A stretch of DNA of 64,000 bases from the NCBI GenBank assembly GCA_037127955.1, contig JBAXXI010000003.1, positions 7,771 through 71,770 of the forward strand, read 5' to 3'. Below, in pieces: positions 1,499 through 56,724 of this stretch (within the stretch, counting starts at the first letter, position 1; each line of letters starts with the position of its first letter). The position numbers and the translations under genes were made by a program. Origin of the DNA: Candidatus Berkelbacteria bacterium (GTDB taxonomy: Bacteria > Patescibacteriota > UBA1384 > UBA12157). The notes below the pieces were generated by a model that had not been told where the DNA came from, made no database searches, and saw nothing but the letters and a program-made list of their open reading frames with translations.

Positions 1499-2998
1499 TT
1501 ATTTTAGCATATCGATGGCTTTTTTCATACGCGCTAAACTCTCGTCTTTACCAAAAAAACCAAGAAGTTCAAACGTACCGGGCGAGGCTGGTTTACCTGA
1601 AAGTGCGGCTCGAATTGGCCACAAAACTTCACCGGCCGAAAGACCAAGTTTAACGGCTAAGGCTCGAAGCAAATTATCAAGTGAATCACGACTAAAATCA
1701 TCTTCTTGCGCCAAAGCTTGACTCGATTCTTCTAAAGCTTTGAGTGTTGCCTCTTTTGTTCCCTTTTTAGGAATTAACAGGTCCGCTTCATAATTTGGCA
1801 GGTGAAAGAAAAAATCCGTTAGCTCTGGTAGTTCTGATAATTTCTTGAGTCGTTCCTGAACCAAAGCAATTATTTGTAAAAGTTCTTCACTTTCTTTTTT
1901 AATCAACCCAGCTTTTTGCAAAAACGGTAAAGCTCGATGAGTTAATTCACCTAAATCCATTTGACGAATATAGTAACCATTAAAATAATCGAGTTTAGTT
2001 TGATCAAAAATCGCTGGACTCTTACCAATATCAGCCAAATCAAAACCACTGGTTAAATCTTTAAGCGTATAAAGTTCGTCGGTCTTAGTCGGTCCATCCA
2101 AAATACTATTAACCGATGGTGACCAACCAAGTAAAACCATAAAATTAATCATGGCTTCTGGCAAATAACCCTGATCACGAAAATCATGACTAACTGAAAC
2201 CGGATTTTTACGCTTACTCATTTTGGTTTTGTCAGAATTTAAAATCATTGGCAAGTGACCATACTCCGGAATAGGCAAATTCATGGCCTGGGCTAACAAA
2301 ATTTGCCTTGGCGTATTCGACAAGTGATCCTCGCCTCTTATTACATGAGTAATTCTCATTTCCGTATCATCAACAATACCAGCGAACATAAAAGTCGGTA
2401 GTCCATCTGATTTCAGGACCACAAAATCACCAAATAATTTCGGATCAAATTCCATCGGACCTTTAATCAAATCTTTAAATTTCACCGGTTGATCTTCTTC
2501 AATTTTAAACCTTAAAGTTGAAGGTCTTCCCTCTTTTTCATATTGCGCAATTTGCTCAGGCGTTAAATTACGACATTTACCAGAGTACTTTGGAGGCAAA
2601 TGATTAGCTTCGGCTGACTTTTTCTCAGCCTCTAAATCTTCGGAAGTACAATAACAGCGATAAGCGTGACCATCAGCCAATAATTGATCAGCATATTTTT
2701 TATAAATCTCTGAGCGCTCACTTTGCCTGTAAGGACCAAATTCACCCTGAGTTTCCGGACCCTCATCGTAATCCATGCCCAACCAATTCATGCATTCCAT
2801 AATATCAATTTCGTATTCCTCGGTTGAACGTTCTTTATCTGTATCTTCAATCCTTAAAATAAATTTACCGCCGAATCTACGAGTAAATAACCAGTTAAAA
2901 AGCGCGGCGCGGGCCGTACCAATATGAAAAAAACCGGTTGGACTTGGGGCAATTCTGGTTCTAATTTCTTCTGACATATTTTCCTTTTTAACCTCCAT
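1499..2998 (-). CDS. gltX: glutamyl-tRNA synthetase
   Basis: HIGH motif (PTGFFHIGTARAALFNW) and KMSKR motif (KMSKRKNP). The true start is possibly M8 at 2977, which has an AAGGA SD. Confidence 0.95.
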   Translation of the reverse strand: MEVKKENMSEEIRTRIAPSPTGFFHIGTARAALFNWLFTRRFGGKFILRIEDTDKERSTEEYEIDIMECMNWLGMDYDEGPETQGEFGPYRQSERSEIYKKYADQLLADGHAYRCYCTSEDLEAEKKSAEANHLPPKYSGKCRNLTPEQIAQYEKEGRPSTLRFKIEEDQPVKFKDLIKGPMEFDPKLFGDFVVLKSDGLPTFMFAGIVDDTEMRITHVIRGEDHLSNTPRQILLAQAMNLPIPEYGHLPMILNSDKTKMSKRKNPVSVSHDFRDQGYLPEAMINFMVLLGWSPSVNSILDGPTKTDELYTLKDLTSGFDLADIGKSPAIFDQTKLDYFNGYYIRQMDLGELTHRALPFLQKAGLIKKESEELLQIIALVQERLKKLSELPELTDFFFHLPNYEADLLIPKKGTKEATLKALEESSQALAQEDDFSRDSLDNLLRALAVKLGLSAGEVLWPIRAALSGKPASPGTFELLGFFGKDESLARMKKAIDMLK

Positions 2999-3039
2999 AT
3001 TTTCGGAGGAGAATCGACAATCTTATTTATTTTAGCGTA

Positions 3040-3393
3040 TCACATTTCTTCAACGGCGTTAACAAAATGCTCGACAGTATTTGTGCTTTCATCAATCCCA
3101 ATAACATCAATACGGATGTCGTGATCAGGAAACTTTTGACTGAGGGCTCTGGCCAACTGACGCAATTTGTATTGTTTGTGCCAATCGACTTCTTCTTGCG
3201 GCAGACCATACAAAAAATTTGATTTAGTTTTAACTTCAACAATAACTAGAGTTTTACCATCTTGCATTAAAATATCGATTTCGCCGCAAGGTAAGCGCAG
3301 GTTTCTAGTCACTAAAACATAATGCTTTTTAAGTAAATACTCTAAAGCCGCATCTTCGCCGCTAGCACCCAATTTTTTACGCTCAAAAGACAT
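3040..3393 (-). CDS. YraN/UPF0102-family endonuclease-like protein
   Basis: 117 aa. The conserved GE.D..........VEVK pattern is present (CGEIDILMQDGKTLVIVEVKTK). Confidence 0.75.
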   Translation of the reverse strand: MSFERKKLGASGEDAALEYLLKKHYVLVTRNLRLPCGEIDILMQDGKTLVIVEVKTKSNFLYGLPQEEVDWHKQYKLRQLARALSQKFPDHDIRIDVIGIDESTNTVEHFVNAVEEM

Positions 3394-3403
3394 ATTTTTG
3401 CTC

Positions 3404-3432
3404 TAAAAAAATCCCGACAAGCGGGATTTTTT
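3404..3432. terminator. intrinsic terminator hairpin (ATCCCG-ACAAG-CGGGAT) flanked by A- and T-tracts
   Basis: Perfect 6-bp stem with flanking A7 and T6 runs, lying downstream of rplS on the minus strand. Confidence 0.6.
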
Positions 3433-3469
3433 CATATATTTATATAATTTTTAAAATAAACCCGCACTT

Positions 3470-3994
3470 TTATTCGGCTTTTTCTTCAGTTTTCTCTTCT
3501 AAGTGAGCCTGAACCGCTTCTTCAAATTTTTCTTCAAGAGCTTGTTCTTCTTTTTCTTTTTCAGCTAATTTAGCTTCGGCTTCAGCGGCTTTTTCGGCTT
3601 CAATTCGAGCGATTTCTTCATCAGCACTTGGTTCTTCCCAAATTTCGCCTGATTTAGTTTCAACTACTTTTTTCTTTTTCTTACCAACCAAATCACGCAC
3701 AAAGTAAAGTTTAGCTCTACCTGGAGCATAACTTTTAACTTTTTCAAATTTCACGATTAATGGCGAATGAATTGGAAAAGTTCGTTCAATACCGATACCA
3801 TCGGTCACACGTCGAACTTTAATTGAGCCATCTAAACCTTTACCATGCTTGGTGGTAATCACTAAGCCTTCAAAATTCTGAATACGAGTTTTCGAGCCTT
3901 CAGTAATTTTAAAAGAAATCTTGACGGTATCGCCAACATTGATATCTGGTACATTTTTCTTTTGATAGCTTTTGGTTAAACTTTGAATATCCAT
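3470..3994 (-). CDS. rplS: 50S ribosomal protein L19 with about 60-aa Glu/Lys/Ala-rich C-terminal extension
   Basis: The N-terminal 115 aa match L19 (MDIQSLTKSYQKK...KLYFVRDLVGKK). The tail AEKAAEAEAKLAEKEKEEQALEEK... is low-complexity. Confidence 0.9.
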   Translation of the reverse strand: MDIQSLTKSYQKKNVPDINVGDTVKISFKITEGSKTRIQNFEGLVITTKHGKGLDGSIKVRRVTDGIGIERTFPIHSPLIVKFEKVKSYAPGRAKLYFVRDLVGKKKKKVVETKSGEIWEEPSADEEIARIEAEKAAEAEAKLAEKEKEEQALEEKFEEAVQAHLEEKTEEKAE

Positions 3995-4597: not shown

Positions 4598-7500
4598 ATG
4601 CCAAACTTTGTCCACTTACATACTCATTCGCATTATTCTTTACTCGACGGTATGGGAAAACTCCCAGACCTAATTAAACGTGCCAAAGAACTAAATATGG
4701 ACACACTAGCTTTAACTGACCATGGTGTTATGTATGGAGCGATTGAATTTTACAAAAAATGTCATGATGAAGGTATTAAAGCAATTATCGGCGTTGAAGC
4801 CTATGTCGCTCCTAGAACCATGAAAGATAAGGAGCCGAAAGTCGATAGTTCACCTTACCATTTGGTTTTGTTGGCTAAAAACGAAGAAGGCTATCAAAAT
4901 CTACTTAAAATAACGACTGTCGCTCACCTCGAAGGCTACTATTATAAACCAAGAGTGGACAAAGAATTTCTAAGGACCCACGGTAAAGGTATTATTGCTT
5001 TATCTGCCTGTTTAGCCGGCGAAGTCCCGCGCATGGTTAATTCAGATCAAAAAGATCGAGCCCTCGAAGCAATTAAAGAATATCAGGAAATTTTCGGTAA
5101 AGAAAATTTTTATCTCGAATTACAATATCACCCAGAACTACCTGAGCAAGTTAAGGTTAATAAAGGCCTGATTGAATTAGCTCGAGAATTAAATATTGGC
5201 CTAGTTTGCACGAGCGATATTCACTATGTTCGCGCCGAAGATCGAGACGCCCATGAAGTTTTGCTCGCCATTCAAACCGGTAAAGATTTTGATGACGAAA
5301 ACAGGCTTTCACTTAAAGAATTCGATTTATCCATGACGTCACCTGAAGATATGGCTGAACATTTTAAAGAAGTCCCAGATGCTTTAACCAATACCTTAAA
5401 AATTGCCGAGCAATGCACTTTGGAATTAAAACTCGGCCAAACCATTTTGCCTAAATTTGACACTCCAGACAATCTTTCAAGTGAAGAATATCTAAATAAA
5501 CTTTGCTACGAGGGCGCCGAAGCCCGTTATGGCAAAATCACTCCGCAAATCAAAGAAAGACTTGATTATGAACTGTCTATTATCTTAAAATGTCACTTTG
5601 AAGACTATTTCTTAATCGTTCGAGATTACGTTAAATTCGCTAAAGATGCCGGAATTATGGTTGGACCTGGTCGTGGCTCGGCCGCTGGCTCAATCGTAGC
5701 CTATGTTTTGGAAATCACCGATCTTGACCCGATTTATTATGACTTACTTTTTGAAAGATTTTTAAATCCAGAACGTATTTCCCCTCCTGATGTGGACTTA
5801 GATTTTGCTGACGACCGCCGTGGCGAAGTCATCCAATATATTTCTGATAAATATGGCAAAGATCATGTGGCCCAAATTATTACTTTCGGTTTAATGAAAG
5901 CTCGTATGGTCATTCGTGATGTAACCAGAGCCCTAGGTATGAGCTATGATGACGGTGATCGAATCGCTAAACTTATTCCAATGGGCATGAATCTCGATGA
6001 AGCCATTGCTAGTGTTGCTGAACTTAAAAAAATTTACGATAACGAACCACCTTTTCGACGTTTAATCGATATGGCTAAACGACTCGAAAACGTCGCTCGT
6101 AACGCTGGCACGCATGCCGCCGGCGTCGTCATTTCTCAAGATGATTTAACTAACTTTGTTCCACTTCAATTTCCACCACGAGGTGAAAACAATATTGTCA
6201 CCCAATATTCCATGAAATATATCGACGAAGTCGGTCTATTAAAAGTTGATATTTTGGGTCTATCCAACCTTACAATTATTAAAAATGCTCTTAGAATTAT
6301 CAAAAAAACCGCGGACGTCGACATCGATCTAAGTAAAATTCCAATGGACGATAATGAAAGTTACGAATTACTGGCCCGAGGCGATTCTTCAGGCGTATTT
6401 CAGCTTGAATCCGATGGCATGAAGCGTTACCTTAAAGAACTCAAGCCAACCAGGTTTGAAGATATCATTTCTATGGTCGCTCTTTACCGACCAGGACCAA
6501 TGGATTCGATTCCAGACTTTATTGACGCCAAACATGGGCGCAAACAGATCACTTATCTTGATCCAAAACTTGAACCAATTCTTTCCAGTACTTATGGTGT
6601 CATTGTTACTCAGGACCAGGTGTTACAGATTGCTCGCCATTTTTCCGGTTTCACTTATGGACAAGCCGATATTCTTCGTAAAGCCGTGGGTAAAAAGAAT
6701 AAAGTTCTCCTTGATGAACAAAAACATAAATTTATCGAAGGTGCGATTAAAGAAGGTGCGTCTCACAATACTGCTCAAGCCGTTTGGGACTTTATCGAAC
6801 CTTTCGCCAGGTATGGCTTTAACCGTGCTCACGCGGCTTGCTATGCCATGATTAGTTACCAAACCGCCTATTTGAAGGCCCACTACCCTTCAGCCTTTAT
6901 GGCCGCTTGGTTGACCGCTGAACAACAAAATATCGACAAAATTGCCTTTGCTATTGGCGAATGCCAACGCATGAGTATCGAGGTCTTACCTCCAGATGTC
7001 AATGAATCATTTGTTGAATTCGGTGTAGTCAAAAGTACTGGCAATATCCGTTTTGGTTTAGCGGCAGTGAAAAATGTTGGAGTTGGAGTTTCAGAAAAAA
7101 TTGTCGAAGAACGTAAAAACAACGGTCCATATTTAAGTTTTGGTGAATTTGTTACTAGGTTAACCGGTAAAGTTTTAAATAAAAAAGTCATCGAAGCCTT
7201 AGCTAAAGCCGGCGCACTCGATCATTTAGTTGAACGTAACCAGGTTTTAACCCAAATCGAAGTGATTTTAAAATTCATTTCCAATTTAGATAAAAGTGAT
7301 AAACATAATCAAATGAATCTATTTAGCGATATGACCGCTAACGCGCCTTTAGCCGAACTTAAACTTGAATCAGTCGAGCCAGCGCCACAAAAACAACGCT
7401 TAGCTTGGGAAAAAGAATTACTTGGTATTTATCTTTCCGAACATCCGCTTAAAGGTGTTGCTTCAAAACTCTTATCTTTAGGTACTTCAATCGCCGAAAT

Positions 7501-8068
7501 TGAAACTCTACCATCGGAAACCAAGGTTAAATTTGGTGGTGTTATTAGTCAATCTCGTAAAATTATGACTAAAAACAAAGAACCAATGATGTTTGTCACA
7601 ATCGAAGATTTAACTGGCAAAATTGAAGTGATCGTCTTTCCACGGACCTTGGCCCAAAATCCTAATATTTGGACTTCGGACGAACCTTTAGTAATCAACG
7701 GTCGGCTCGATCGCAAGGAAAACTTGCCTAAAGTGATTGCTCAAAGCGCTGAAATTCTTGATGAAGCCAACGATAATCCAGGTGACGAAGTAGTTGTCGC
7801 CGAAAATGACGCAAAACGCAAAACTGCAGCAGAAAAAATCGTGATCACTCTACCAGGCCGCGCTCAAAAAGATATTCTTCTTAAAATCAAAGATATTTTA
7901 GCTCAATATGTAGTTCCGGACGGCGTACCAGGTCTGGCTGTCTATCTTAAAATTCCAAAAAATATCGGCTATGAAGAAATAAAAACTAAAACAACCGTCG
8001 AACTTAAAGCCGCTCTCACCAGACAACTGGGAGAAGCTATTGATGGCGGCAAAATTGAAATTCTCTAA
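4598..8068 (+). CDS. dnaE: DNA polymerase III alpha subunit
   Basis: 1156 aa. N-terminal PHP domain (FVHLHTHSHYSLLDG), polymerase core and a C-terminal OB fold. Preceded by a TTGTCA-17-TAAGAT promoter. Confidence 0.95.
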   Translation: MPNFVHLHTHSHYSLLDGMGKLPDLIKRAKELNMDTLALTDHGVMYGAIEFYKKCHDEGIKAIIGVEAYVAPRTMKDKEPKVDSSPYHLVLLAKNEEGYQNLLKITTVAHLEGYYYKPRVDKEFLRTHGKGIIALSACLAGEVPRMVNSDQKDRALEAIKEYQEIFGKENFYLELQYHPELPEQVKVNKGLIELARELNIGLVCTSDIHYVRAEDRDAHEVLLAIQTGKDFDDENRLSLKEFDLSMTSPEDMAEHFKEVPDALTNTLKIAEQCTLELKLGQTILPKFDTPDNLSSEEYLNKLCYEGAEARYGKITPQIKERLDYELSIILKCHFEDYFLIVRDYVKFAKDAGIMVGPGRGSAAGSIVAYVLEITDLDPIYYDLLFERFLNPERISPPDVDLDFADDRRGEVIQYISDKYGKDHVAQIITFGLMKARMVIRDVTRALGMSYDDGDRIAKLIPMGMNLDEAIASVAELKKIYDNEPPFRRLIDMAKRLENVARNAGTHAAGVVISQDDLTNFVPLQFPPRGENNIVTQYSMKYIDEVGLLKVDILGLSNLTIIKNALRIIKKTADVDIDLSKIPMDDNESYELLARGDSSGVFQLESDGMKRYLKELKPTRFEDIISMVALYRPGPMDSIPDFIDAKHGRKQITYLDPKLEPILSSTYGVIVTQDQVLQIARHFSGFTYGQADILRKAVGKKNKVLLDEQKHKFIEGAIKEGASHNTAQAVWDFIEPFARYGFNRAHAACYAMISYQTAYLKAHYPSAFMAAWLTAEQQNIDKIAFAIGECQRMSIEVLPPDVNESFVEFGVVKSTGNIRFGLAAVKNVGVGVSEKIVEERKNNGPYLSFGEFVTRLTGKVLNKKVIEALAKAGALDHLVERNQVLTQIEVILKFISNLDKSDKHNQMNLFSDMTANAPLAELKLESVEPAPQKQRLAWEKELLGIYLSEHPLKGVASKLLSLGTSIAEIETLPSETKVKFGGVISQSRKIMTKNKEPMMFVTIEDLTGKIEVIVFPRTLAQNPNIWTSDEPLVINGRLDRKENLPKVIAQSAEILDEANDNPGDEVVVAENDAKRKTAAEKIVITLPGRAQKDILLKIKDILAQYVVPDGVPGLAVYLKIPKNIGYEEIKTKTTVELKAALTRQLGEAIDGGKIEIL

Positions 8069-8150
8069 TTTGACATCGTGACCAGATTATCTTACGCTTA
8101 ATATAGGTATATTTATCAAGTAAAGTCATAAACTTTCCAGGAGGTAAAAT

Positions 8151-8504
8151 ATGAACGAAGAAAAAACCACAACACCCGGACCAGAACACTTAAGCCCAAA
8201 TGTAGCCGCCGCTCTTTGTTATTTTCTTTGGATGGTTGGCGGTATCGTTTTCTATCTAACCAGTAAAAATGAATATGTCCGCTTCCACGCCATGCAATCT
8301 TTGCTTTTTAGCGCTGCTATTGCCGTAATTTATGTTTTCCTTATGGTTTTCGGTTTTATGCTCTGGTTTTTACTCGGCATTGTTTCAATCTTGATTTACA
8401 CGGCCGTTTTTGCCGTCTGGCTTTTACTCATGATTAAGGCTTATCAAGGTGAAAAATTCAAACTACCTTATTTGGGTCAAATGGCCGAAAAACTAATCAA
8501 ATAA
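8151..8504 (+). CDS. small integral membrane protein (DUF4870-like)
   Basis: 117 aa with 3 predicted TM helices. An SD (GGAGG) precedes the ATG. Confidence 0.6.
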   Translation: MNEEKTTTPGPEHLSPNVAAALCYFLWMVGGIVFYLTSKNEYVRFHAMQSLLFSAAIAVIYVFLMVFGFMLWFLLGIVSILIYTAVFAVWLLLMIKAYQGEKFKLPYLGQMAEKLIK

Positions 8505-8517
8505 GAAACTTAGGTAC

Positions 8518-8548
8518 TAAAAAAACGACCGAAATGGTCGTTTTTTTG
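8518..8548. terminator. bidirectional intrinsic terminator (CGACC-GAAAT-GGTCG) with A7/T7 flanks
   Basis: Hairpin between convergent genes (8151-8504 on + and 8566-9063 on -). Confidence 0.7.
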
Positions 8549-8565
8549 ATTTTGTAATTATAAAT

Positions 8566-9063
8566 TTAATTTTTATATTTCTTCGCCAAAGTTGCAATTT
8601 TTTCCTGTAAAAAATGAGGATTTTCAACATTTTCCACCACAATCATCGAAACTTCATCACCCACTGTTGATATTTTTACATCGCCAAAATTCAATAAACT
8701 TTTAATTAAGCCTTTGATCTCGTAATTAATATTCATAACATTATCAAGTTCAGTTTCTGAAACTCGACGATTGAAAAAACTTTTTTGATCAATCTTAATA
8801 ATCCGATGATTTGTCAAAATCAATAAATCGTTACTGTACGAGTACCAAACGATCGTTACATAAATTAAAACAAAACAAACACCAACGGCCAATAATCCAA
8901 TTGTAAAAGCATTCCAGTGACCGATTAAAATACCGGCGAAAACAATTAATATTACTAAAATTATATTAAAAATCGCTCGAGCCAAAACCCAAGGATGCTG
9001 GCGAACCGTCATAATGACTTCTTCGTCGGCTGCTTGATTGTCGAGCTCTAAATCTGCTTTCAT
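8566..9063 (-). CDS. membrane-anchored bacterial PH-domain (bPH_2/DUF304-like) protein
   Basis: 165 aa. Two TM helices followed by a PH-like C-terminal region. Confidence 0.55.
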   Translation of the reverse strand: MKADLELDNQAADEEVIMTVRQHPWVLARAIFNIILVILIVFAGILIGHWNAFTIGLLAVGVCFVLIYVTIVWYSYSNDLLILTNHRIIKIDQKSFFNRRVSETELDNVMNINYEIKGLIKSLLNFGDVKISTVGDEVSMIVVENVENPHFLQEKIATLAKKYKN

Positions 9064-50780: not shown

Positions 50781-51000
50781 TAGTTTAATTATATCAGTTT
50801 CAGTTAAATAAAAAAGACCAATATTATTATATAACAGCAATCTATTGGCTTATGACTTGAATTTATCATAAAAATCAGATATGATATTGATATCTTTGTA
50901 ATATCTGCAAGAATATCGCCCGCAAGCCTTTTGGCTTCGCCAAAGCTACGGTCGAATTGTAATATTTTATTCTTGCGACCAAAGGTCACACGAATAAAAT

Positions 51001-51076
51001 GCGCCCGTAGCTCAGTGGATAGAGCGTCTGCTTGCGGAGCAGAAGGCCACAGGTTCAAGTCCTGTCGGGCGCACCA
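51001..51076 (+). tRNA. tRNA-Arg (anticodon read as GCG)
   Basis: Cloverleaf with acceptor GCGCCCG/CGGGCGC, anticodon arm TCTGC-TTGCGGA-GCAGA, T-arm ACAGG-TTCAAGT-CCTGT and an encoded CCA. Confidence 0.75.
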
Positions 51077-52761
51077 TCAGTGATTAAGAGTAGTTTTTCA
51101 TAGTTTGGAGTGAGCGTAAAGTCGGTAACAGACCAGTCAAAAACAGGTTTGCCATCAGCTCTATCGCTCTTTTTTTGTGCTTGCAAAGTGAGGTTCAAAA
51201 AGTACTTTCTGATGATTTGGTCTTTGAGCTTGATATTGCGAGTGTTTATCAGTATTTCAACCATATCTTTGAAGAGTTCAAAGTATTTTTCATATGTCGG
51301 TATGGCGTTTTTTAAGTTCTCGATTTGAGCTTGAGTTTCCTTTATCTGGCTTTCAAAATACTCAATCTCTTTTTGGATTTGGTCTAAGTCGCCGCTATTA
51401 AAATGCTTCATCATTGTCGGGTCATTTCTTCTGACAATTTCTTTCGTTCTCTCATAAGTTTTAGTTCGTTCTGTTTTTTGTTGTCTTAGTGAGCGCAAAC
51501 GGCTATCTAATGAAGTTTCAACTTGCTTTGTAGTTTCTTCCTTTTCTTTAACCATCTGTTTATACATATCCATTGAAGTAAAATCGCATTTCTTAAAGTA
51601 ATCATAGATAAACTCAAGAGCGACTTTGGACCGAAATGATTTGCCGTGAACCGAGCAAGAGGGGTTATTACACCTAAACATATAGTAGTTTGTCTTTTTG
51701 GTTTTTGCTTTATTGTATTTTGTAGTAATACCAGAAATCATATCCGAACCACATTCGGCACATTTGATAATTCCCCTTAAAAGCATTTCTTTGTTTCTGG
51801 GTACGCCGATAGGTTTCTTGCTAATAAAAGATATGCCGTTGTAACTGTAATTATTGAGCTTGCAATACTCCTGAACGGTAATCATCGGGATAAAATCATA
51901 AATTTCTGTTAAATCAACAATCTCGGTGCCGTATTGCATTACGCCAGCATAAACAGGGTCTGAAAACATCACCGTTAAGGTATTATCAACAACTTTGTAA
52001 TGCATATTTCTTTCCCTATTAGCTACTGGAGCTCGGGTATATTTATTTTCATTTAGATACTTTTCTATTGCTTTGTAGTTCTGACCTTCCAGTCGCATTT
52101 CAAAAGCTCGCTTAATAAGCAACCAATTATCGCCATCTGGTCGCAATCTTTTGTTAATATCTTTGTAGTACCCTTGTTTGGGCGTATGAATTGATAAACC
52201 CGCTTGGGTACTTCTTCTTTGACCTCTAAGAACTTGTTCTCTCAAATGGTCTGAATACTGCTTTGAAAGCACAAAAGACATTCCAAGTAGCATTTTGCCC
52301 ATCGGCGAGTTTTCAAAAGTAAAAGTGGCAAATCTCAAATCTTTAATAATGTTTTCTTCTAAAAGATAGATTATTTCGCCAGCGTCTTTCATATTTCGTG
52401 CTAATCTGTCGGGGTGCCAGGCGAGAACGGCATTATATTTTCCCCTTTGAATATCTTCGAGCATTTTCTTAAACTTTGGTCTAATACCTGGCGCTTTTGC
52501 GCTTTCTTTTTCTCGAACTATATCGACAAGATTCAAATTATTTTTGGTTACTTGCATTTCAATACAGTCGGCAATTTGGTCTTCAAGCGACCGCTCTTGC
52601 TTCTCATCACCAGAGGTGGATTTTCTGACATATAAAACAAACTTTAGTTTAGTAACATCAATTACTGGTTCTGCGTCAAGCAAAGTTTGTTTTAACGCTT
52701 CCGCCAGTTCGCCAGTAGTCGTGAGAACGCTTTCAAGAGCTTGTTCTTTTTTGTTCATCAT
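51055..52761 (-). mobile_element. large serine recombinase (integrase) of an integrated element
   Basis: Catalytic region VLYVRKSTSGDEKQERSLEDQ...IYLLEENIIKDLRFATF. Zinc-ribbon and coiled-coil C-terminal region (CAECGS...CNNPSC). The stop codon lies inside the tRNA-Arg 3' end. The ATG overlaps the upstream stop in an ATGA arrangement. Confidence 0.85.
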
Positions 52762-53798
52762 AAAGTTTTTCCAATCGAAGAACCGTGAACTCTGAAATGA
52801 CATTTACCATTTTCTTCTTTTACTGTTTCGAGCTCTAAACTGCCATATTTCCCTGTAAATTTGTTGTTTGGATTATCACAAAGAGTTTTTATTACTTGTT
52901 CCGATTTTACAGTAAGGTATTGGTAAAAAGTGAAACAGTTTGTAATCTGCTCCAATAATTCAGGGATTGAAAGCACTTGATGAAGTTCAATCAGCATTAC
53001 ACCTTTATTCGAAACAGTATAATGGTTATGCGAGAATGCATTTCTAAGTTCATTATTGTAAAACGAGCTTATAATTTTGCCGACTTCGCTTTTAGCTTCT
53101 TTTGACCTGCTTAAAATCATATTTATTTTTCGCCAGTTGGTCATTTTATCTGAAAATAATGGTTTACAGACATCTGTAATATCTTTCGCTTTAATGTAAT
53201 CGGGATTTCCGTTCTCAATGATATTTTTTATTTTCCTGATTATTACCTGATAGTCAGGTGTTTTCTTTTCAAAAACATTCAAATCAAAACTTTCACCACA
53301 ACAGACATCAAGCAACCCATAAATAAAAATGTAAAATAAATAAAACTCAAGAATATGGCAATATAAAAAAATGAAAACTTTAATTAGCAAACCATCAGCT
53401 TGAAACAAATCGGGATTTCCAAGTAAAGAGAAGAAGTCGCCGAGTGTTTTATCCAGTTCTTTTCTTATGTCGTAATCATCACTTAATTGCATTAACCCAT
53501 TAAAATACAGATTGGCAATTACAAACTCTCTTTCATCTGTTTTTTGAGCAGATTCAAAAAGCTCATCAATCGTTTTTTGATACAGCGCTTTTGTTTCTTC
53601 TTTTGGAAATCTTAATTTTACAATCTTATCTTTTTCTTCGTTCATAATAACTGGACCAGTTTTAGACCACTTTTGGTTAAGCAGACCATCTGTCGGTAGA
53701 TTGAGGTTCATCAAAAGTAAAGCCGCTGGTAGTTCTTGCAAATACTGGTTGAACATCTTCTTTGTTGATAATATCCGAAAATCTGAATAATAAATCAA
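52758..53798 (-). CDS. HEPN-motif protein, Abi-like (possible Abi_2/AbiD-AbiF-type RNase)
   Basis: R-N-x3-H motif (ELRNAFSHNHY) matches the HEPN Rx4-6H signature. The size is similar to AbiD/AbiF. The start is uncertain: the ORF overlaps the HTH gene by 120 nt, and alternative ATGs lie at 53756, 53711 and 53645. Confidence 0.5.
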   Translation of the reverse strand: MIYYSDFRILSTKKMFNQYLQELPAALLLMNLNLPTDGLLNQKWSKTGPVIMNEEKDKIVKLRFPKEETKALYQKTIDELFESAQKTDEREFVIANLYFNGLMQLSDDYDIRKELDKTLGDFFSLLGNPDLFQADGLLIKVFIFLYCHILEFYLFYIFIYGLLDVCCGESFDLNVFEKKTPDYQVIIRKIKNIIENGNPDYIKAKDITDVCKPLFSDKMTNWRKINMILSRSKEAKSEVGKIISSFYNNELRNAFSHNHYTVSNKGVMLIELHQVLSIPELLEQITNCFTFYQYLTVKSEQVIKTLCDNPNNKFTGKYGSLELETVKEENGKCHFRVHGSSIGKTL

Positions 53799-54084
53799 TT
53801 AACTTACCAGTTGGAACATCGTTTAGTTTGCGGGTTGATAATTCACCCCTAATTAGCTCTAATTGCTCGCTATAGAGCTTTATGCGGTGTTCTCGACTTA
53901 TTTTATACTGTTCTCTTATTGATTCAAGCTCAATCTGTTTAAGGTTTGTTATCTCTTCCGCTAAATCTTTCGACCAATCAATTAGGGTGGTTTTACTGAC
54001 TTCTAATTCATCTGAAATTTTAGCAAAACTTTTACCTTTTGCCCTAAGTTCTACAAATTGTTGTTTCTTAGTTAAATCTTGCAT
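53677..54084 (-). CDS. helix-turn-helix DNA-binding protein
   Basis: HTH pattern ELRAKGKSFAKISDELEVSKTTLIDWSK, then a coiled-coil-like region. Confidence 0.6.
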   Translation of the reverse strand: MQDLTKKQQFVELRAKGKSFAKISDELEVSKTTLIDWSKDLAEEITNLKQIELESIREQYKISREHRIKLYSEQLELIRGELSTRKLNDVPTGKLIDLLFRFSDIINKEDVQPVFARTTSGFTFDEPQSTDRWSA

Positions 54085-54289
54085 TTGTTTGCTCCATAAT
54101 TACAATCTAATCATACCATAAAAACCGCTCTTCTAACAGTCGCAAAAGTAGTTTTTATTAGGTTCTAAATACCAGTATTTTTGAGACCAATTGAAATTAA
54201 AGTTCAGTTATGAGAAAATGGTTTCAGTTATAGTACATTATTACCCACCTAACCCTTAGGCAACCCCTAAGGTATGGTACCAATAAAAA

Positions 54290-54398
54290 TCACACGCAAA
54301 TAAAGGTGGTCTTCTGACCTCACCATTTGCGTGTGTCCGTATTCGAAAGAGTATGGGGTATCCCCGAAAGGGGGTGCCGAGGTTCGGGAGACCTTTTT
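54290..54398 (+). ncRNA. candidate structured RNA or terminator cluster (three hairpins plus T6)
   Basis: Hairpin CACACGCAAAT...ATTTGCGTGTG with an 11-bp stem, then GGGGTATCCCC and CCGAGGTTCGG hairpins, then a TTTTTT run. It lies 58 nt upstream of the 54457 gene. Confidence 0.3.
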
Positions 54399-54456
54399 TG
54401 TATTTAATAAATAACGAATTGAAACATTTTTTAATAAATTAAGGAAAGGAGCAAAA

Positions 54457-55200
54457 ATGCCCTTTATCTATCTCTTGGTTCTGGGAACATCTATCTGGGT
54501 TTTAGTTGATGGCTACAGGTACGAAATGAATAAAAACGAAAGTCCAATACTTTGGTTTATTGGTTGTCTATTACTTTGGATTATCGCTTTCCCTTGGTAC
54601 TTAGCTAAGAGAAATCATTATAAACTAAAAGATAATTCCGAAAAGGGCAAAGATTCAAAAGGTAGTTCCAAAATAGAATTAGGAAATCCGATAAAAACTC
54701 CTAATTTTCTTGCGATTGGCTGTGGTGGTCTAATACTGCTTATTATAATTGTTTCGATGATTAACAGTGGATTACAGGGAGCTAACAAAAAAGCTCAAGA
54801 TTTGAGTAAACAAAACTCTAACAACTCAACCAATACAAATCCGACACCCTCTAATAATAGCTCGTCTGCGCCACAAGTAAGTAATATCGCTGTTAATGGA
54901 GATGAAGCATATCTAAAGCTCCCAAATATAGATGATACTGGTTCTGCCATTCTATTAGCAACTGATAAAAAATATCTTGACGAGGTAACCAAAACTTTGA
55001 TAAACAAAGATTATATGGGAATACTTGAGTTAGCAGAACAAAACAAAGCATTTGCTGTACATAATGGTAGCAAAGTTCTCGTTATTGATGGCACTATGTT
55101 TGCTCGAAGAGTAAGAATTTTGCAAGGGACACAACCAGTTGATAGTGATAAGGTGGGCTTATCTGGCTGGGTTCCAATGGAGTGGGTAGTAAAAAAATAA
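54457..55200 (+). CDS. hypothetical membrane protein with Asn/Ser-rich linker and a C-terminal globular domain
   Basis: AAGGAAAGGAG SD. 2-3 TM helices. Confidence 0.55.
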   Translation: MPFIYLLVLGTSIWVLVDGYRYEMNKNESPILWFIGCLLLWIIAFPWYLAKRNHYKLKDNSEKGKDSKGSSKIELGNPIKTPNFLAIGCGGLILLIIIVSMINSGLQGANKKAQDLSKQNSNNSTNTNPTPSNNSSSAPQVSNIAVNGDEAYLKLPNIDDTGSAILLATDKKYLDEVTKTLINKDYMGILELAEQNKAFAVHNGSKVLVIDGTMFARRVRILQGTQPVDSDKVGLSGWVPMEWVVKK

Positions 55201-55224
55201 TTACCAAAAACAATAAAACAAAAG

Positions 55225-55249
55225 AGACGCTACAAAATGCGTCTTTTTT
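55225..55249. terminator. bidirectional terminator GACGC-TACAAAAT-GCGTC + T6
   Basis: Immediately after the 55200 stop. Confidence 0.7.
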
Positions 55250-55693
55250 GTTTCTAAAAGATTACATATCACAATACATCTACCTATAGTTCAAACCAAA
55301 ACTTGTTATGATTTAATGTCTTTGGTAACTTGGGGTTTTTCACCTAATTGTATGGTTTCACCATCATCAGAAATACCGACAAAACCACGAGCTGGAGAGT
55401 CATCTTTAGGTTCTTGTCTTGCTTGCTCTAATGAATTAGAAATGTCATTATTATTATCACTCATAGATTTAATATACCACGGAAAAGTCGGATTTAACAA
55501 GGTCTTTCTCGGTTAAAAGTGTTGTCAGTTCTCTAATAAAGGTTGAAATTATCTCCCAATTTGATAAGATGTATCTGGTAAGTTCAAATACACTATGTAC
55601 TTGAGCACCATTTTTTAAATTTTCTATGGAAGGGTCGCATAAGAACATTTTCTTCGGAAAATAACCTTGTCCAACCCATTCCTCACTTTGTTC

Positions 55694-55783
55694 GGAAGGG
55701 TCGCATAGTGGTCTAGTGCAGTGGTCTTGAAAACCGCCAGGCCTGCAAGGGTCTCGTGGGTCCGAATCCCACCCCTTCCGCCA
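55694..55783 (+). tRNA. tRNA-Ser (anticodon TGA), type II with long variable arm
   Basis: Acceptor GGAAGGG/CCCTTCC, anticodon loop CTTGAAA, a variable-arm hairpin, T-arm GTGGG-TCCGAAT-CCCAC and an encoded CCA. 90 nt. Confidence 0.8.
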
Positions 55784-55807: not shown

Positions 55808-56056
55808 ATGAATAATTGGTCAGTTTATATTTTGCAATGCTCAGATAACACCTATTATACTGGTATTACGACCGATATTGAAAAGCGATTAATCGCCCAT
55901 CAAACCGGCAAAGGCGCTAAATATACTGCTGGTCGATTACCTGTTAAAATCGTGTATTTCAAAGATAATCTAACCGAAAGTCAGGCTCGCAAAGAAGAAT
56001 TTAGAATCAAAAGTTTATCAAGATCTGATAAGATAAAACTGATATTTGATAAATAA
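55808..56056 (+). CDS. GIY-YIG nuclease-domain protein (YhbQ/UPF0213-like)
   Basis: WSVYILQCSDNTYYTGITTDIEKRLIAHQTG matches the GIY-YIG core (Y..Y.G, R, H). Confidence 0.8.
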   Translation: MNNWSVYILQCSDNTYYTGITTDIEKRLIAHQTGKGAKYTAGRLPVKIVYFKDNLTESQARKEEFRIKSLSRSDKIKLIFDK

Positions 56057-56109: not shown

Positions 56110-56724
56110 ATGAAATTCTATTCGAATGATATAGTCAATTTGGCTAGAGAAAAAAGAATTAAAGGTAATTCTATTAGAAAAATTTCCAAAGAATTACAAA
56201 TTTCAGATACTACTATTGGCAGATGGGTAAAAGATATAAAATCAGATTCTTTATCTTATAACAAAAATAGATTAAAAAATGAAGATGAGAAGCAGAAATA
56301 TAATCATCTTTTTAAAAACTTAAAAATTACAGCAAAAAATGCAAAATTATTTTGTAGTTTACTATATTGGTGCGAAGGATCGAAATACCCTTCTAGTAAC
56401 TGTGTCACTTTTGTAAATAGCGATTTCAAGTTAGTGAAAACATTCTTTCAATTATTGAAACAAGTCTTCGAAATAGATAACAATAAAGTTAGAATACACC
56501 TGCAAATACATGCAACTCACAACTTTGAAGAAGTAAGAAAATTCTGGAGTAAGTTACTTGCTATACCAGAAGAACAGTTTTACAAACCGACTATCACCAA
56601 TCCTGCCCAAAAAATGAAAAGATTAAATTACAAGGGCACTTGTACACTAAAATACTTTGACTCAAAAATATTATTACAGATTACTGGCATATTCGAAGAA
56701 TTTTCCAATAAAAATTTATCATAA
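56110..56724 (+). CDS. HTH-domain protein with possible LAGLIDADG-like endonuclease region
   Basis: N-terminal HTH (GNSIRKISKELQISDTTIGRWVKD). LLYWCEGSKYP weakly resembles a LAGLIDADG motif. Confidence 0.45.
   Translation: MKFYSNDIVNLAREKRIKGNSIRKISKELQISDTTIGRWVKDIKSDSLSYNKNRLKNEDEKQKYNHLFKNLKITAKNAKLFCSLLYWCEGSKYPSSNCVTFVNSDFKLVKTFFQLLKQVFEIDNNKVRIHLQIHATHNFEEVRKFWSKLLAIPEEQFYKPTITNPAQKMKRLNYKGTCTLKYFDSKILLQITGIFEEFSNKNLS

Follow-up and report, generated by a model that had tools for sequence, protein, structure and literature searches.

Gene organization of the integrative element

The window, that is, the whole stretch of DNA analyzed (64,000 nt of Candidatus Berkelbacteria bacterium, Patescibacteriota; GCA_037127955.1, contig JBAXXI010000003.1, 7,771–71,770 of the forward strand), carries at a tRNA-Arg gene an integrative element of ~4.6 kb, whose minus-strand operon encodes an HTH protein, a HEPN-like protein and a large serine recombinase (Table 1).

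Table 1. Features of the element, numbered by position in the window
Feature	Position	Strand	Basis
tRNA-Arg(GCG), right-hand junction of the element	51001..51076	+	ARAGORN; Rfam, 74.9 bits
Large serine recombinase, 568 aa	51055..52761	-	Pfam and PHROG matches
ATGA stop/start overlap of cargo gene and recombinase gene	52758..52761	-	Read directly from the sequence
HEPN-like cargo gene, 295 aa plus TGA, start ATG 53645	52758..53645	-	Homologue alignment; homology boundary at 53659
Codons R201-N-A-F-S-H206, candidate HEPN catalytic Rx4H motif, followed by Y209	53028..53045	-	Conservation; models
Codons Y95-C-H-I-L-E100, second conserved motif with invariant Tyr and Glu	53346..53363	-	Conservation in relatives
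31-nt spacer behind the HTH stop with conserved CCAAAAGTGGTCTAAAACTGGTCC motif; cargo starts past the spacer	53646..53676	-	Comparison with L014, L015 and L005
HTH protein, 135 aa, encoded at the head of the operon; core partner of the recombinase	53677..54084	-	HTH_23, HTH_7; relatives
LOOT RNA (Rfam RF03000), divergent from the HTH-cargo-recombinase operon	54246..54378	+	Covariance-model score
Predicted membrane protein, 247 aa, content of the second variable slot	54457..55200	+	No family match
Conserved 52-aa ORF, left part of the element	55306..55464	-	Protein alignment; conserved block
Candidate left attachment site, imperfect palindrome resembling the tRNA-Arg 3′ end	55570..55611	-	Inferred from sequence

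The recombinase matched Resolvase (PF00239, 3.6e-21), Recombinase (PF07508, 2.1e-6) and Zn_ribbon_recom (PF13408, 4.4e-7) of Pfam as well as PHROG 95 (integrase, 3e-59); with the Resolvase and Recombinase domains and the zinc ribbon all present, it is a large serine recombinase by domain content. Species genomes searched with this protein yielded no relatives. The final 22 nt of its gene overlap the 3′ end of tRNA-Arg, and the recombinase genes of three unrelated elements also terminate inside a tRNA or tmRNA gene, at its 3′ end.

At the opposite end, the putative left attachment site, in which ATGGTGCTCAAGTACATAGTGTATTTGAACTTACC was compared with the reverse complement of tRNA-Arg, ATGGTGCGCCCGACAGGACTTGAACC, is kept in two related elements, L014 and L005, at the point where the block of element-level identity begins. 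An imperfect direct repeat (51078–51106 and 54137–54164) was rejected as the element ends in favor of a boundary at ~55611, because the block 55611..55281 shows element-level identity with L014 (89.5%) and L005 (79%). Elsewhere in the window, no displaced copy of the tRNA-Arg 3′ end was found at up to 3 mismatches, and scans for promoters and terminators gave uninformative counts at background level. The slot filled here by the predicted membrane protein, which found no match in family searches, holds non-homologous genes in L014 (274 aa, PsbP_2-like) and in L005 (204 aa, plus SHOCT); the 204-aa protein of L005 is unrelated to the 204-aa protein encoded in the window.

Boundaries of the HEPN-like gene

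An earlier note on this DNA had described a 346-aa protein containing ELRNAFSHNHY, whose gene overlapped the HTH gene by ~120 nt and the recombinase gene at its stop codon. The minus-strand ORF 52758..53798 indeed encodes this sequence (R-N-A-F-S-H at 53045..53028); the 346-aa reading, which begins at TTG, is merely the longest ORF. Four homologues (P0002–P0005; 291–295 aa, 44–60% identical) all start within 3 residues of Met52, corresponding to ATG 53645. Moreover, the DNA from 54169 to 53659 is 88% homologous by blastn to the HTH gene and spacer of elements lacking the HEPN-like gene, so that the upstream extension is HTH-gene sequence read in another frame. Because both the homologues and the cargo-free elements place the start at ATG 53645, the true gene, as judged by these comparisons, encodes 295 residues and begins 31 nt past the HTH stop, and both the length of 346 aa and the overlap with the HTH gene are artefacts. 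Public gene calls for the HEPN-like protein (317 and 327 aa) are likewise overlong at the N-terminus, which calls for caution in annotation.

The overlap at the other end was confirmed. The TGA of the cargo gene (52760..52758) overlaps the in-frame ATG of the recombinase gene (52761..52759) within TATGATGAAC, and this ATG is the start used by gene callers for the 568-aa recombinase. The coupling recurs in L005, where the same junction reads TAATG, whereas the cargo-free L014 has a 46-nt spacer instead. GGAG lies 7 nt ahead of the ATG of the HTH gene. Since the HEPN-like gene has no recognizable Shine-Dalgarno sequence of its own, begins 31 nt past the HTH stop and runs into the recombinase start codon, it probably relies on the HTH-cargo-recombinase transcript of the element for its expression.

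A cargo slot between the HTH and recombinase genes

In elements without a HEPN gene (L014, L015 and L023), the recombinase and HTH proteins are 96.6% and 92.6% identical in amino acid sequence to those of the window, respectively. Comparison with a cargo-free element by blastn showed that the HEPN-like gene replaces 32 bp of the 46-nt spacer; the CCAAAAGTGGTCTAAAACTGGTCC motif behind the HTH stop is also found in L014, L015 and L005, and the cargo is inserted downstream of it. The same slot in L005 holds three cargo genes, namely AlbA_2, a 241-aa gene and a HEPN-like gene. Thus, the HEPN-like gene is a swappable, optional cargo. Whether or not cargo is present, the HTH gene accompanies the same recombinase, and these two genes therefore constitute, by sequence comparison, the core of the element. 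Between the window and a cargo-free relative, the element proteins are 92.6–96.6% identical, compared with 70.6% for the flanking host protein.

Hotspots with varying defence genes are described for P2-like phages and P4-like satellites (PMC9122126). The likeness to these hotspots lies in the fixed position and the exchangeable genes (here 0, 1 or 3) within near-identical elements; the present case differs in being a serine-recombinase element of a CPR bacterium with the slot inside the HTH-recombinase operon. Neither the neighboring genes nor the cargo gave a significant match to a defence model in PADLOC, so that the slot is only presumed to serve in defence.

The HTH gene belongs with the recombinase

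The earlier note had read the HTH and HEPN-like genes as a candidate defence or addiction module. An HTH protein is indeed encoded just upstream (Pfam HTH_23, E=9e-4; HTH_7, 0.024), and an HTH antitoxin paired with a HEPN toxin in the same operon, stabilizing the element, would have a precedent in Tha/Ith of Staphylococcus aureus prophages, where a small protein annotated as 'excisionase' beside the integrase is the inhibitor of a HEPN protein (PMC11087260); the earlier note had known of no description of this exact pairing, and Tha/Ith is a comparable arrangement already published. The gene neighborhoods, however, argue against a two-gene toxin-antitoxin module. The HTH gene stands directly ahead of the same recombinase gene, with no HEPN gene, in L014, L015, L023 and the P0172 contig; two other genes part it from the HEPN-like gene in L005, where the HTH protein is 70% identical (92.6% in L014); the HEPN-like gene has no HTH neighbor in L007, L008, L013, L018, L019 and plasmids; and the gene overlap that had suggested the pairing does not exist. 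Accordingly, the conserved adjacency of HTH and HEPN-like genes that would mark a type II toxin-antitoxin system was absent from the loci compared. These observations largely refute the toxin-antitoxin reading, which we consider very unlikely. The mobile element of the earlier proposal stands, the dedicated pair does not, and the HTH gene goes with the recombinase rather than with the HEPN-like gene.

Scanning with the HTH alignment returned a single locus, L023, from metagenomes and none from the viral collection. No homology was detectable between the HTH protein and the terminase-small-subunit-like proteins at the same position in L007 and L024.

Conservation of the RNxxxH motif

A library search detected at least 247 cluster representatives related to the HEPN-like protein at E≤1e-3. 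In a protein this long, chance alone would be expected to produce a lone Rx4H match. The RNAFSH motif, by the measure of the alignments, is more than chance, because R201, N202 and H206 show little or no variation among ~150 cluster representatives with identities as low as ~20%; loss of these residues in homologues, which the earlier note had named as a possible refutation, was thus not seen. RN[AS]FxH was present in nearly every full-length protein among 153 tested, a set including the best 150 of the 247 matches at E≤1e-3. R201-x4-H206 is invariant in alignments A1, A2 and A4, in agreement with the Rx4-6H signature of the HEPN superfamily that the earlier note had recognized in ELRNAFSHNHY, and N202, the polar residue right behind the Arg that is also characteristic of HEPN domains, is conserved in ~98% of relatives. 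Four further residues, Y95, E100, N110 and Y209, are near-invariant among relatives; Y95 and E100 are conserved in 98% and 99%, respectively, of 121 sequences (the query and 120 relatives), and neither varies in A4. The upstream acidic residue typical of HEPN domains may be E100, which has Phe at +4 and so departs from the usual Ex3[KR] form.

Predicted fold and comparison with known HEPN families

Structure prediction, which the earlier note had suggested as a check, gave AF2 models with a HEPN-type bundle (pLDDT 81.7 over the whole protein, 91.0 within the core). Both models place the motif at a helix end, as described for HEPN domains (PMC3710099), with a beta-hairpin and then a long helix after it; the predicted bundle has four helices running up and down, an insert between helices 2 and 3 and the motif ending helix 3. 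We infer from these models that the 295-aa protein has a HEPN fold, to which a ~70-residue helical insert, a beta-hairpin past the motif, a C-terminal beta-sheet and extra N-terminal helices would be added.

Curated HEPN profiles were not matched: searches of Pfam, NCBIfam and PHROGs with the protein gave no match, and those with its relatives (69 and 10 more) placed none in a HEPN or other family, with Pfam thresholds of up to E≤10. In PADLOC, the query alone among 69 members matched, weakly, the HEPN portion of a Csx1/Csm6 model (E=2.4e-4); unlike Csx1/Csm6, the protein has neither a CARF domain nor a CRISPR-Cas context. The designation 'Abi-like' in the family sense did not survive the search with Abi_2 (PF07751), which matched neither the protein (E≤1), nor the 69 relatives (E≤0.01), nor the 10 more (E≤10). 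RiboL-PSP-HEPN (PF18735) likewise gave no profile match to the protein or the relatives tested. With Ribo L-PSP-HEPN and AbiD/AbiF (Abi_2) proteins (PMC3710099), the protein shares R-N-x3-H, a single chain of 250–350 aa and mobile or defence contexts; it differs in that the Pfam models of both families miss it and 79 relatives and in that the window has no L-PSP gene. Alignment by hhalign with the Ymh HEPN family matched the RNxxSH motif alone at negligible probability, A2 and A4, used as profiles against PDB sequences, gave only chance-level matches, and Foldseek found no match in the PDB. Nor were relatives of the family found in the species-genome and viral collections searched. From the HepT (DUF86) toxins of HEPN-MNT systems (PDB 7ae2, 8xdj, 5yep and 1ylm), the protein differs in having no MNT partner, in being twice as long, with the predicted insert, hairpin and C-terminal sheet, and in the spacing of its Tyr (H-x-x-Y rather than H-x-Y); there was no sequence-profile match to HepT.

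Together, the alignments and models point to membership in a previously unannotated family with HEPN character. The same conserved residues could be read otherwise: Y-C-H-x-x-E and R-N-x-F-x-H-x-x-Y may form a metal- or ligand-binding site or a non-catalytic RNA-binding site in a protein that is no nuclease, the likeness to HEPN being convergent. We regard this as rather unlikely, yet as the most serious of the alternatives considered here.

Genomic contexts of the family

Relatives of the HEPN-like protein recur in mobile and defence contexts. Three (L007, L008 and L018) reside in other serine-recombinase elements, that of L008 directly behind a Ymh-family HEPN gene. In L019, the relative comes after an EVE gene and one for Eco57I-type restriction-modification; in L013, a tyrosine integrase and an N6 methyltransferase lie nearby; and those on Agrobacterium plasmids adjoin KAP NTPase and TIR genes. 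Two distant relatives of one lineage (L009 and L011), and only these, stand directly behind Ribonuc_L-PSP genes, the association that named the Ribo L-PSP-HEPN family (PMC3710099).

These contexts also bear on whether the protein assists the serine recombinase, for instance by setting its directionality or regulating its expression, with translational coupling to maintain stoichiometry. The stop/start overlap with the recombinase gene in two elements and the repeated presence of the family in recombinase-bearing elements (the window, L005, L007, L008 and L018) would fit such a role. Nevertheless, the 96.6%-identical recombinase occupies the same tRNA-Arg site without the HEPN-like gene, the gene in L007, L008 and L018 lies 3–4 kb from the recombinase gene, the recombinases of L007 and L008 are just 21–22% identical to that of the window, and relatives with no nearby recombinase exist (L009, L011, L019 and the Agrobacterium plasmids). 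An accessory role is thus very improbable in our estimation.

LOOT RNA upstream of the operon

Divergently upstream of the operon lies LOOT, an orphan Rfam RNA, detected as a full-length match (1–121) that scored 66.6 bits, above the Rfam gathering threshold of 46.4 (E=2.6e-11). It occupies the same relative position in L005 and L007. A functional statement on LOOT was not found in the literature searched, and to our knowledge its occurrence in recombinase-bearing elements is the first genomic context known for this RNA.

LOOT might act as antitoxin, regulator or substrate of a HEPN-like RNase, in a manner resembling type III toxin-antitoxin systems. All three elements that have a close family member and enough context (the window, L005 and L007) carry LOOT upstream, and L014, the sole cargo-free element whose upstream region is complete, has none even at E≤1; these counts (3/3 vs 0/1) are, however, very small. 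Furthermore, five more LOOT RNAs occur in viral contigs with no HEPN-like gene inside the loci examined, the more distant family members L008 and L018 have no LOOT, and LOOT is present in single copy, unlike the repeat array of ToxI-type antitoxins. We accordingly give this idea the least credence of all. Somewhat less doubtful, though still quite unlikely, is that LOOT is a standard part of the divergent control region of CPR serine-recombinase elements and phages and that the HEPN-like RNase is regulated or neutralized by it.

Discussion

The interpretation we favor, by a modest degree over its being wrong, is that the 295-aa protein belongs to a family of HEPN character, carried as optional cargo in a fixed slot of the element, and that it is a likely single-protein RNase of the conflict or abortive-infection type. 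The helical bundle of the protein would carry an Rx4H site of the metal-independent RNase type, and the protein would be held inactive until triggered, possibly through the extra N-terminal helices and the C-terminal beta-sheet. Such an RNase may benefit the element by protecting its host.

The nearest described arrangement is Tha-1/Ith-1 of S. aureus prophages (phage 80alpha orf3 and 'xis'), a HEPN protein with a small inhibitor once annotated as excisionase (PMC11087260). Tha-1 is likewise a single protein of ~300 aa with an RNxxxH HEPN motif (R265NSIMH270; PMC11087260), and both proteins have their genes in the module nearest the integrase of an integrated element, presumably on the element's own operon in the present case, with a small gene of DNA-binding type nearby. 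The proposed mode of action, an abortive-infection-type RNase shielding the host of the element, would also be the same. There are clear differences: the HEPN domain of Tha-1 is C-terminal and gives weak Pfam HEPN matches, whereas our motif lies in the middle of a larger predicted bundle with no Pfam match; the Tha-1 element is a tyrosine-integrase prophage and ours a minimal serine-recombinase element; and the HTH gene, unlike Ith, travels with the recombinase rather than with the HEPN gene. Similarity to Tha-1 was not detected either by tblastn against 50,697 phage records (E≤1) or by hhalign of A4 with Tha-1 (probability 0.2%).

If the HEPN assignment holds, an unannotated family would be added to the HEPN conflict RNases, with at least 247 cluster representatives at E≤1e-3 and no coverage by Pfam, NCBIfam, PHROGs or PADLOC beyond the weak match given above. 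Were the proposed link to LOOT true, LOOT and the HEPN-like RNase would together form an RNA-protein conflict module of a new kind; failing that link, the HEPN-like gene would still represent a novel family of single-gene abortive infection in a phylum with a barely charted defence repertoire. The comparisons also show that very small serine-recombinase elements of Patescibacteria (CPR) carry exchangeable cargo within the recombinase operon. Given the tiny genomes of CPR bacteria, their small number of recognized defence systems and the near absence of experimental phage biology, such slots are a practical place for finding new systems.

HEPN-like gene as cargo of a recombinase element

In the window, which comes from a Candidatus Berkelbacteria MAG in which the HEPN-like protein is annotated as hypothetical, three genes run head-to-tail on the minus strand, encoding an HTH protein, the middle ORF, and a large serine recombinase. 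The middle ORF had been read in the earlier note as a 346-aa protein overlapping the HTH gene by about 120 nt. This reading, with a TTG start at 53798 and a 122-nt overlap, was found to be wrong. A search among 5.8 billion protein clusters gave only five related ones, and the four homologues from other organisms are 291–295 aa long, all starting within 3 residues of Met52 (ATG 53645). Moreover, elements without the middle gene match 54169..53659 at 88% with their HTH gene and downstream spacer (blastn, 2195..2706 of the cargo-free locus L014); hence the N-terminal extension is HTH-gene DNA in another frame. The real protein has 295 residues, and its gene begins 31 nt past the HTH stop. Inspection of its upstream sequence revealed no obvious Shine-Dalgarno sequence; GGAG lies 7 nt ahead of the ATG of the HTH gene. 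The proposed stop/start overlap with the recombinase gene is indeed present in the junction TATGATGAAC (ATG at 52761, TGA at 52760-52758), and recurs as TAATG in L005, the locus of a 60%-identical relative.

In public annotations, the start of the HEPN-like gene is placed too far upstream (317 and 327 aa). Over the recombinase gene (7239-9008), a JGI contig (L002, 3300021349) matches the window at 100% identity yet carries no gene call there, which looks like a gene-calling gap rather than a real difference; a 51-aa JGI fragment also belongs to the 90% recombinase cluster.

The HTH and HEPN-like genes, previously suggested to form a pair, do not. For two recombinases of the same 90% cluster (P0172 and P0174), the 135-aa gene stands immediately before the recombinase gene with nothing between, and L023 is an additional such case. 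The cargo-free L014 and L015 share their chromosomal location with the element of the window, flanked by tRNA-Arg on one side and a polysaccharide synthase gene on the other. In blastn, 52752..50999 of the window also matched L014 (2738..4491, 91.7%), and about 907 bp comprising the HEPN-like gene replace 32 bp of L014's 46-nt spacer; the conserved spacer motif CCAAAAGTGGTCTAAAACTGGTCC still follows the HTH stop, and the recombinase ATG is where the cargo terminates. The slot of L005 holds three genes, for a Schlafen/AlbA_2 protein, a 241-aa protein, and the HEPN-like protein. Between the window and L014, the recombinase and HTH proteins are 96.6% and 92.6% identical, whereas identity drops to 70.6% for the adjoining polysaccharide synthase of the host. 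It follows that the hosts diverged earlier than their HTH-recombinase units did, and that this unit is mobile, in agreement with the location in a mobile element suggested earlier. Accordingly, the object is not a new HTH-HEPN module but an unannotated HEPN-like cargo gene of a mobile element. An unlikely rival explanation makes the HEPN-like protein an accessory factor of the recombinase; the stop/start overlap speaks for it and the cargo-free loci against it.

Relationship to HEPN domains

Searched by profile, 1.84 billion cluster representatives yielded at least 247 relatives (E ≤ 1e-3), and R-N-[AS]-F-x-H occurs in almost all full-length ones (153 examined, including the best 150 of 247). 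In an alignment of 121 sequences (query plus 120 relatives), conservation was 100% for R201 and H206, 99% for E100, 98% for N202, Y95, and Y209, and 93% for N110, which is G in the close subfamily. Pfam, NCBIfam, and PHROGs gave zero matches to the protein, and none of 79 relatives matched Pfam HEPN families, although the cutoff was relaxed to E ≤ 10 for ten of these. PADLOC returned a single weak match, to the HEPN portion of the Csx1/Csm6 model (E = 2.4e-4), shared by none of 68 relatives. Profile searches of PDB sequences with the family were negative, as was hhalign against Tha-1; against the Ymh HEPN family, hhalign paired nothing beyond RNAFSH and RNEKSH, and the probability was negligible. 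By profile, the protein belongs neither to Abi_2, the family named in the earlier note, nor to RiboL-PSP-HEPN.

AlphaFold modelled the full-length protein with a pLDDT of 81.7; residues 80-260, modelled from a deeper alignment, reached 91.0. Both models place the motif at a helix end, followed by a beta-hairpin and a long final helix; Anantharaman et al. described the same motif placement in HEPN domains and the same hairpin in Csx1 (PMC3710099). Foldseek with the predicted fold against PDB gave zero matches, and every Z in structure comparison was below 6. A helical protein that is no nuclease is a less likely rival here. Motif and predicted fold together make membership in the HEPN superfamily fairly probable; no known HEPN family is assignable.

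As a HEPN protein, the product would be a solitary RNase expressed from the element's operon, presumably an abortive-infection-type effector from which the element would gain via its host. Among experimentally characterised proteins, Tha-1 of S. aureus prophages is the nearest analogue. This 301-aa HEPN protein (RNSIMH), whose gene adjoins that of the integrase and is expressed along with the lysogeny operon, is activated by phage tail proteins and inhibited by a small protein formerly called Xis (PMC11087260). A Tha/Ith-like HTH+HEPN pairing ranks low, because the HTH gene tracks the recombinase and not the HEPN-like gene.

Neighbours of the relatives

The gene of P0005 (46% identical) lies in an island of about 6 kb with an unrelated serine recombinase (21% identity), whose gene ends inside the tmRNA 3' end; 13 nt of the tmRNA terminus recur as a direct repeat bounding the island. 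The gene of P0155 (30%; L008 3681-4574) follows a Ymh-family HEPN gene (2903-3679) after a 1-nt gap, so that two different HEPN-type genes, Ymh/TIGR02391-family and HEPN-like, stand in tandem in a CPR recombinase element ending in tRNA-Asn; Patescibacteria have many members of the Ymh family (976 hits). The P0165 contig also bears a recombinase and a ParB-HTH gene, the P0167 gene overlaps an EVE-domain gene by 4 nt downstream of an Eco57I-type enzyme, P0162 has an N6 methyltransferase and a tyrosine integrase nearby, and P0158 and P0159 lie behind Ribonuc_L-PSP genes. Agrobacterium plasmid copies are in accessory regions, one adjoining KAP NTPase and TIR genes. Contexts of these kinds are typical of HEPN conflict proteins (PMC3710099). 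PADLOC models gave no convincing match to the neighbours of the HEPN-like gene and its relatives.

Element ends and LOOT RNA

A block with a 52-aa ORF (55611..55281) retains element-level identity (89.5%), and between it and the HTH gene lies a second variable slot with non-homologous contents across the three elements compared. On its left, the block ends in an imperfect palindrome similar to the tRNA-Arg 3' end; judged from sequence, this palindrome is the probable second attachment site, giving an element of about 4.6 kb. Three mutually distant recombinase genes (21–22% identity) end inside convergent tRNA or tmRNA 3' ends, so that the recombinase C-terminus is partly tRNA-encoded; the attachment site apparently overlaps the gene end.

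Features of the element and related loci
Feature	Locus	Position	Strand	Remark
HTH protein, 135 aa	window	54084..53677	minus	first of three genes
HEPN-like gene, real extent, 295 aa	window	53645..52758	minus	from homologue starts and cargo-free comparison
Large serine recombinase	window	ends 51055	minus	Resolvase, Recombinase, Zn-ribbon domains
Second slot	window	54169-55281		247-aa membrane protein, LOOT
Second slot	L014	1139-2195		274-aa PsbP_2-like protein
Second slot	L005	968-2015		204-aa protein, SHOCT, LOOT
Recombinase/tRNA-Arg overlap	window	51055-51076		22 nt
Recombinase/tmRNA overlap	L007	15210-15259		50 nt
Recombinase/tRNA-Asn overlap	L008	9768-9803		36 nt
LOOT	window	54246-54378	plus	divergent operon ends in recombinase
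LOOT	L005	2048-2175	minus	divergent operon ends in recombinase
LOOT	L007	12705-12820	minus	divergent operon ends in recombinase
LOOT	L024	5922-6043		divergent operon ends in recombinase
LOOT	L041	8399-8517		divergent operon ends in recombinase
LOOT	L089	194-323		adjoins recombinase
LOOT	L032	2421-2538
LOOT	L030	5520-5654

Just beyond the left end, 14 nt of the tRNA-Ser(TGA) 5' end, GGAAGGGTCGCATA, are exactly duplicated 66 nt upstream (55628-55641 and 55694-55707), which may be the scar of another insertion or excision; the corresponding interval in L014 holds a NUDIX gene. Between tRNA-Ser(TGA) and tRNA-Ser(GCT) are genes for an 82-aa GIY-YIG protein (55808-56056) and a 204-aa protein with an HTH-like N-terminal segment (56110-56724), which may be homing-endonuclease-like genes in a tRNA cluster.

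On a viral contig (L024 2416-5403), a ParB-N6/N4 methylase fusion, a 122-aa terminase-small-like HTH protein, and the terminase large subunit are encoded upstream of the recombinase, and the P0005 locus (L007) has a Terminase_2 protein where the window has the HTH protein. The latter may have arisen from a small terminase, in which case the element would be a prophage remnant or satellite; homology of the 135-aa protein to the small-terminase-like proteins of L007 and L024 was not detectable.

The metagenomic orphan RNA LOOT (Rfam RF03000) is encoded divergently to the HTH gene in the window and keeps the same relative position in L005 and L007, though the L007 recombinase is unrelated; it is absent from L014 (E ≤ 1). 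It co-occurs with all three close family members having enough context; a LOOT-RNA-partnered system is an unlikely rival explanation of the HEPN-like protein. A pattern scan of IMG/VR verified five further LOOT RNAs, none with a HEPN-like gene; three have a serine recombinase 0.1–3.6 kb away, and in two of these LOOT heads a divergent operon ending in the recombinase gene. One of the two operons runs from a ParB-methylase through a terminase-small-like HTH and the terminase large subunit to the recombinase. Altogether, a serine recombinase lies near LOOT at six of the eight loci, and the gene after LOOT always shares its orientation but differs in kind. Since it recurs in recombinase-bearing loci including those IMG/VR ones, LOOT seems to be a component of recombinase-integrating elements or phages; it has no specific tie to the HEPN-like gene. 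These results suggest a place for LOOT in the control region of such elements or phages of CPR bacteria; this association and the cargo slot of the CPR recombinase element are the two parts worth pursuing.
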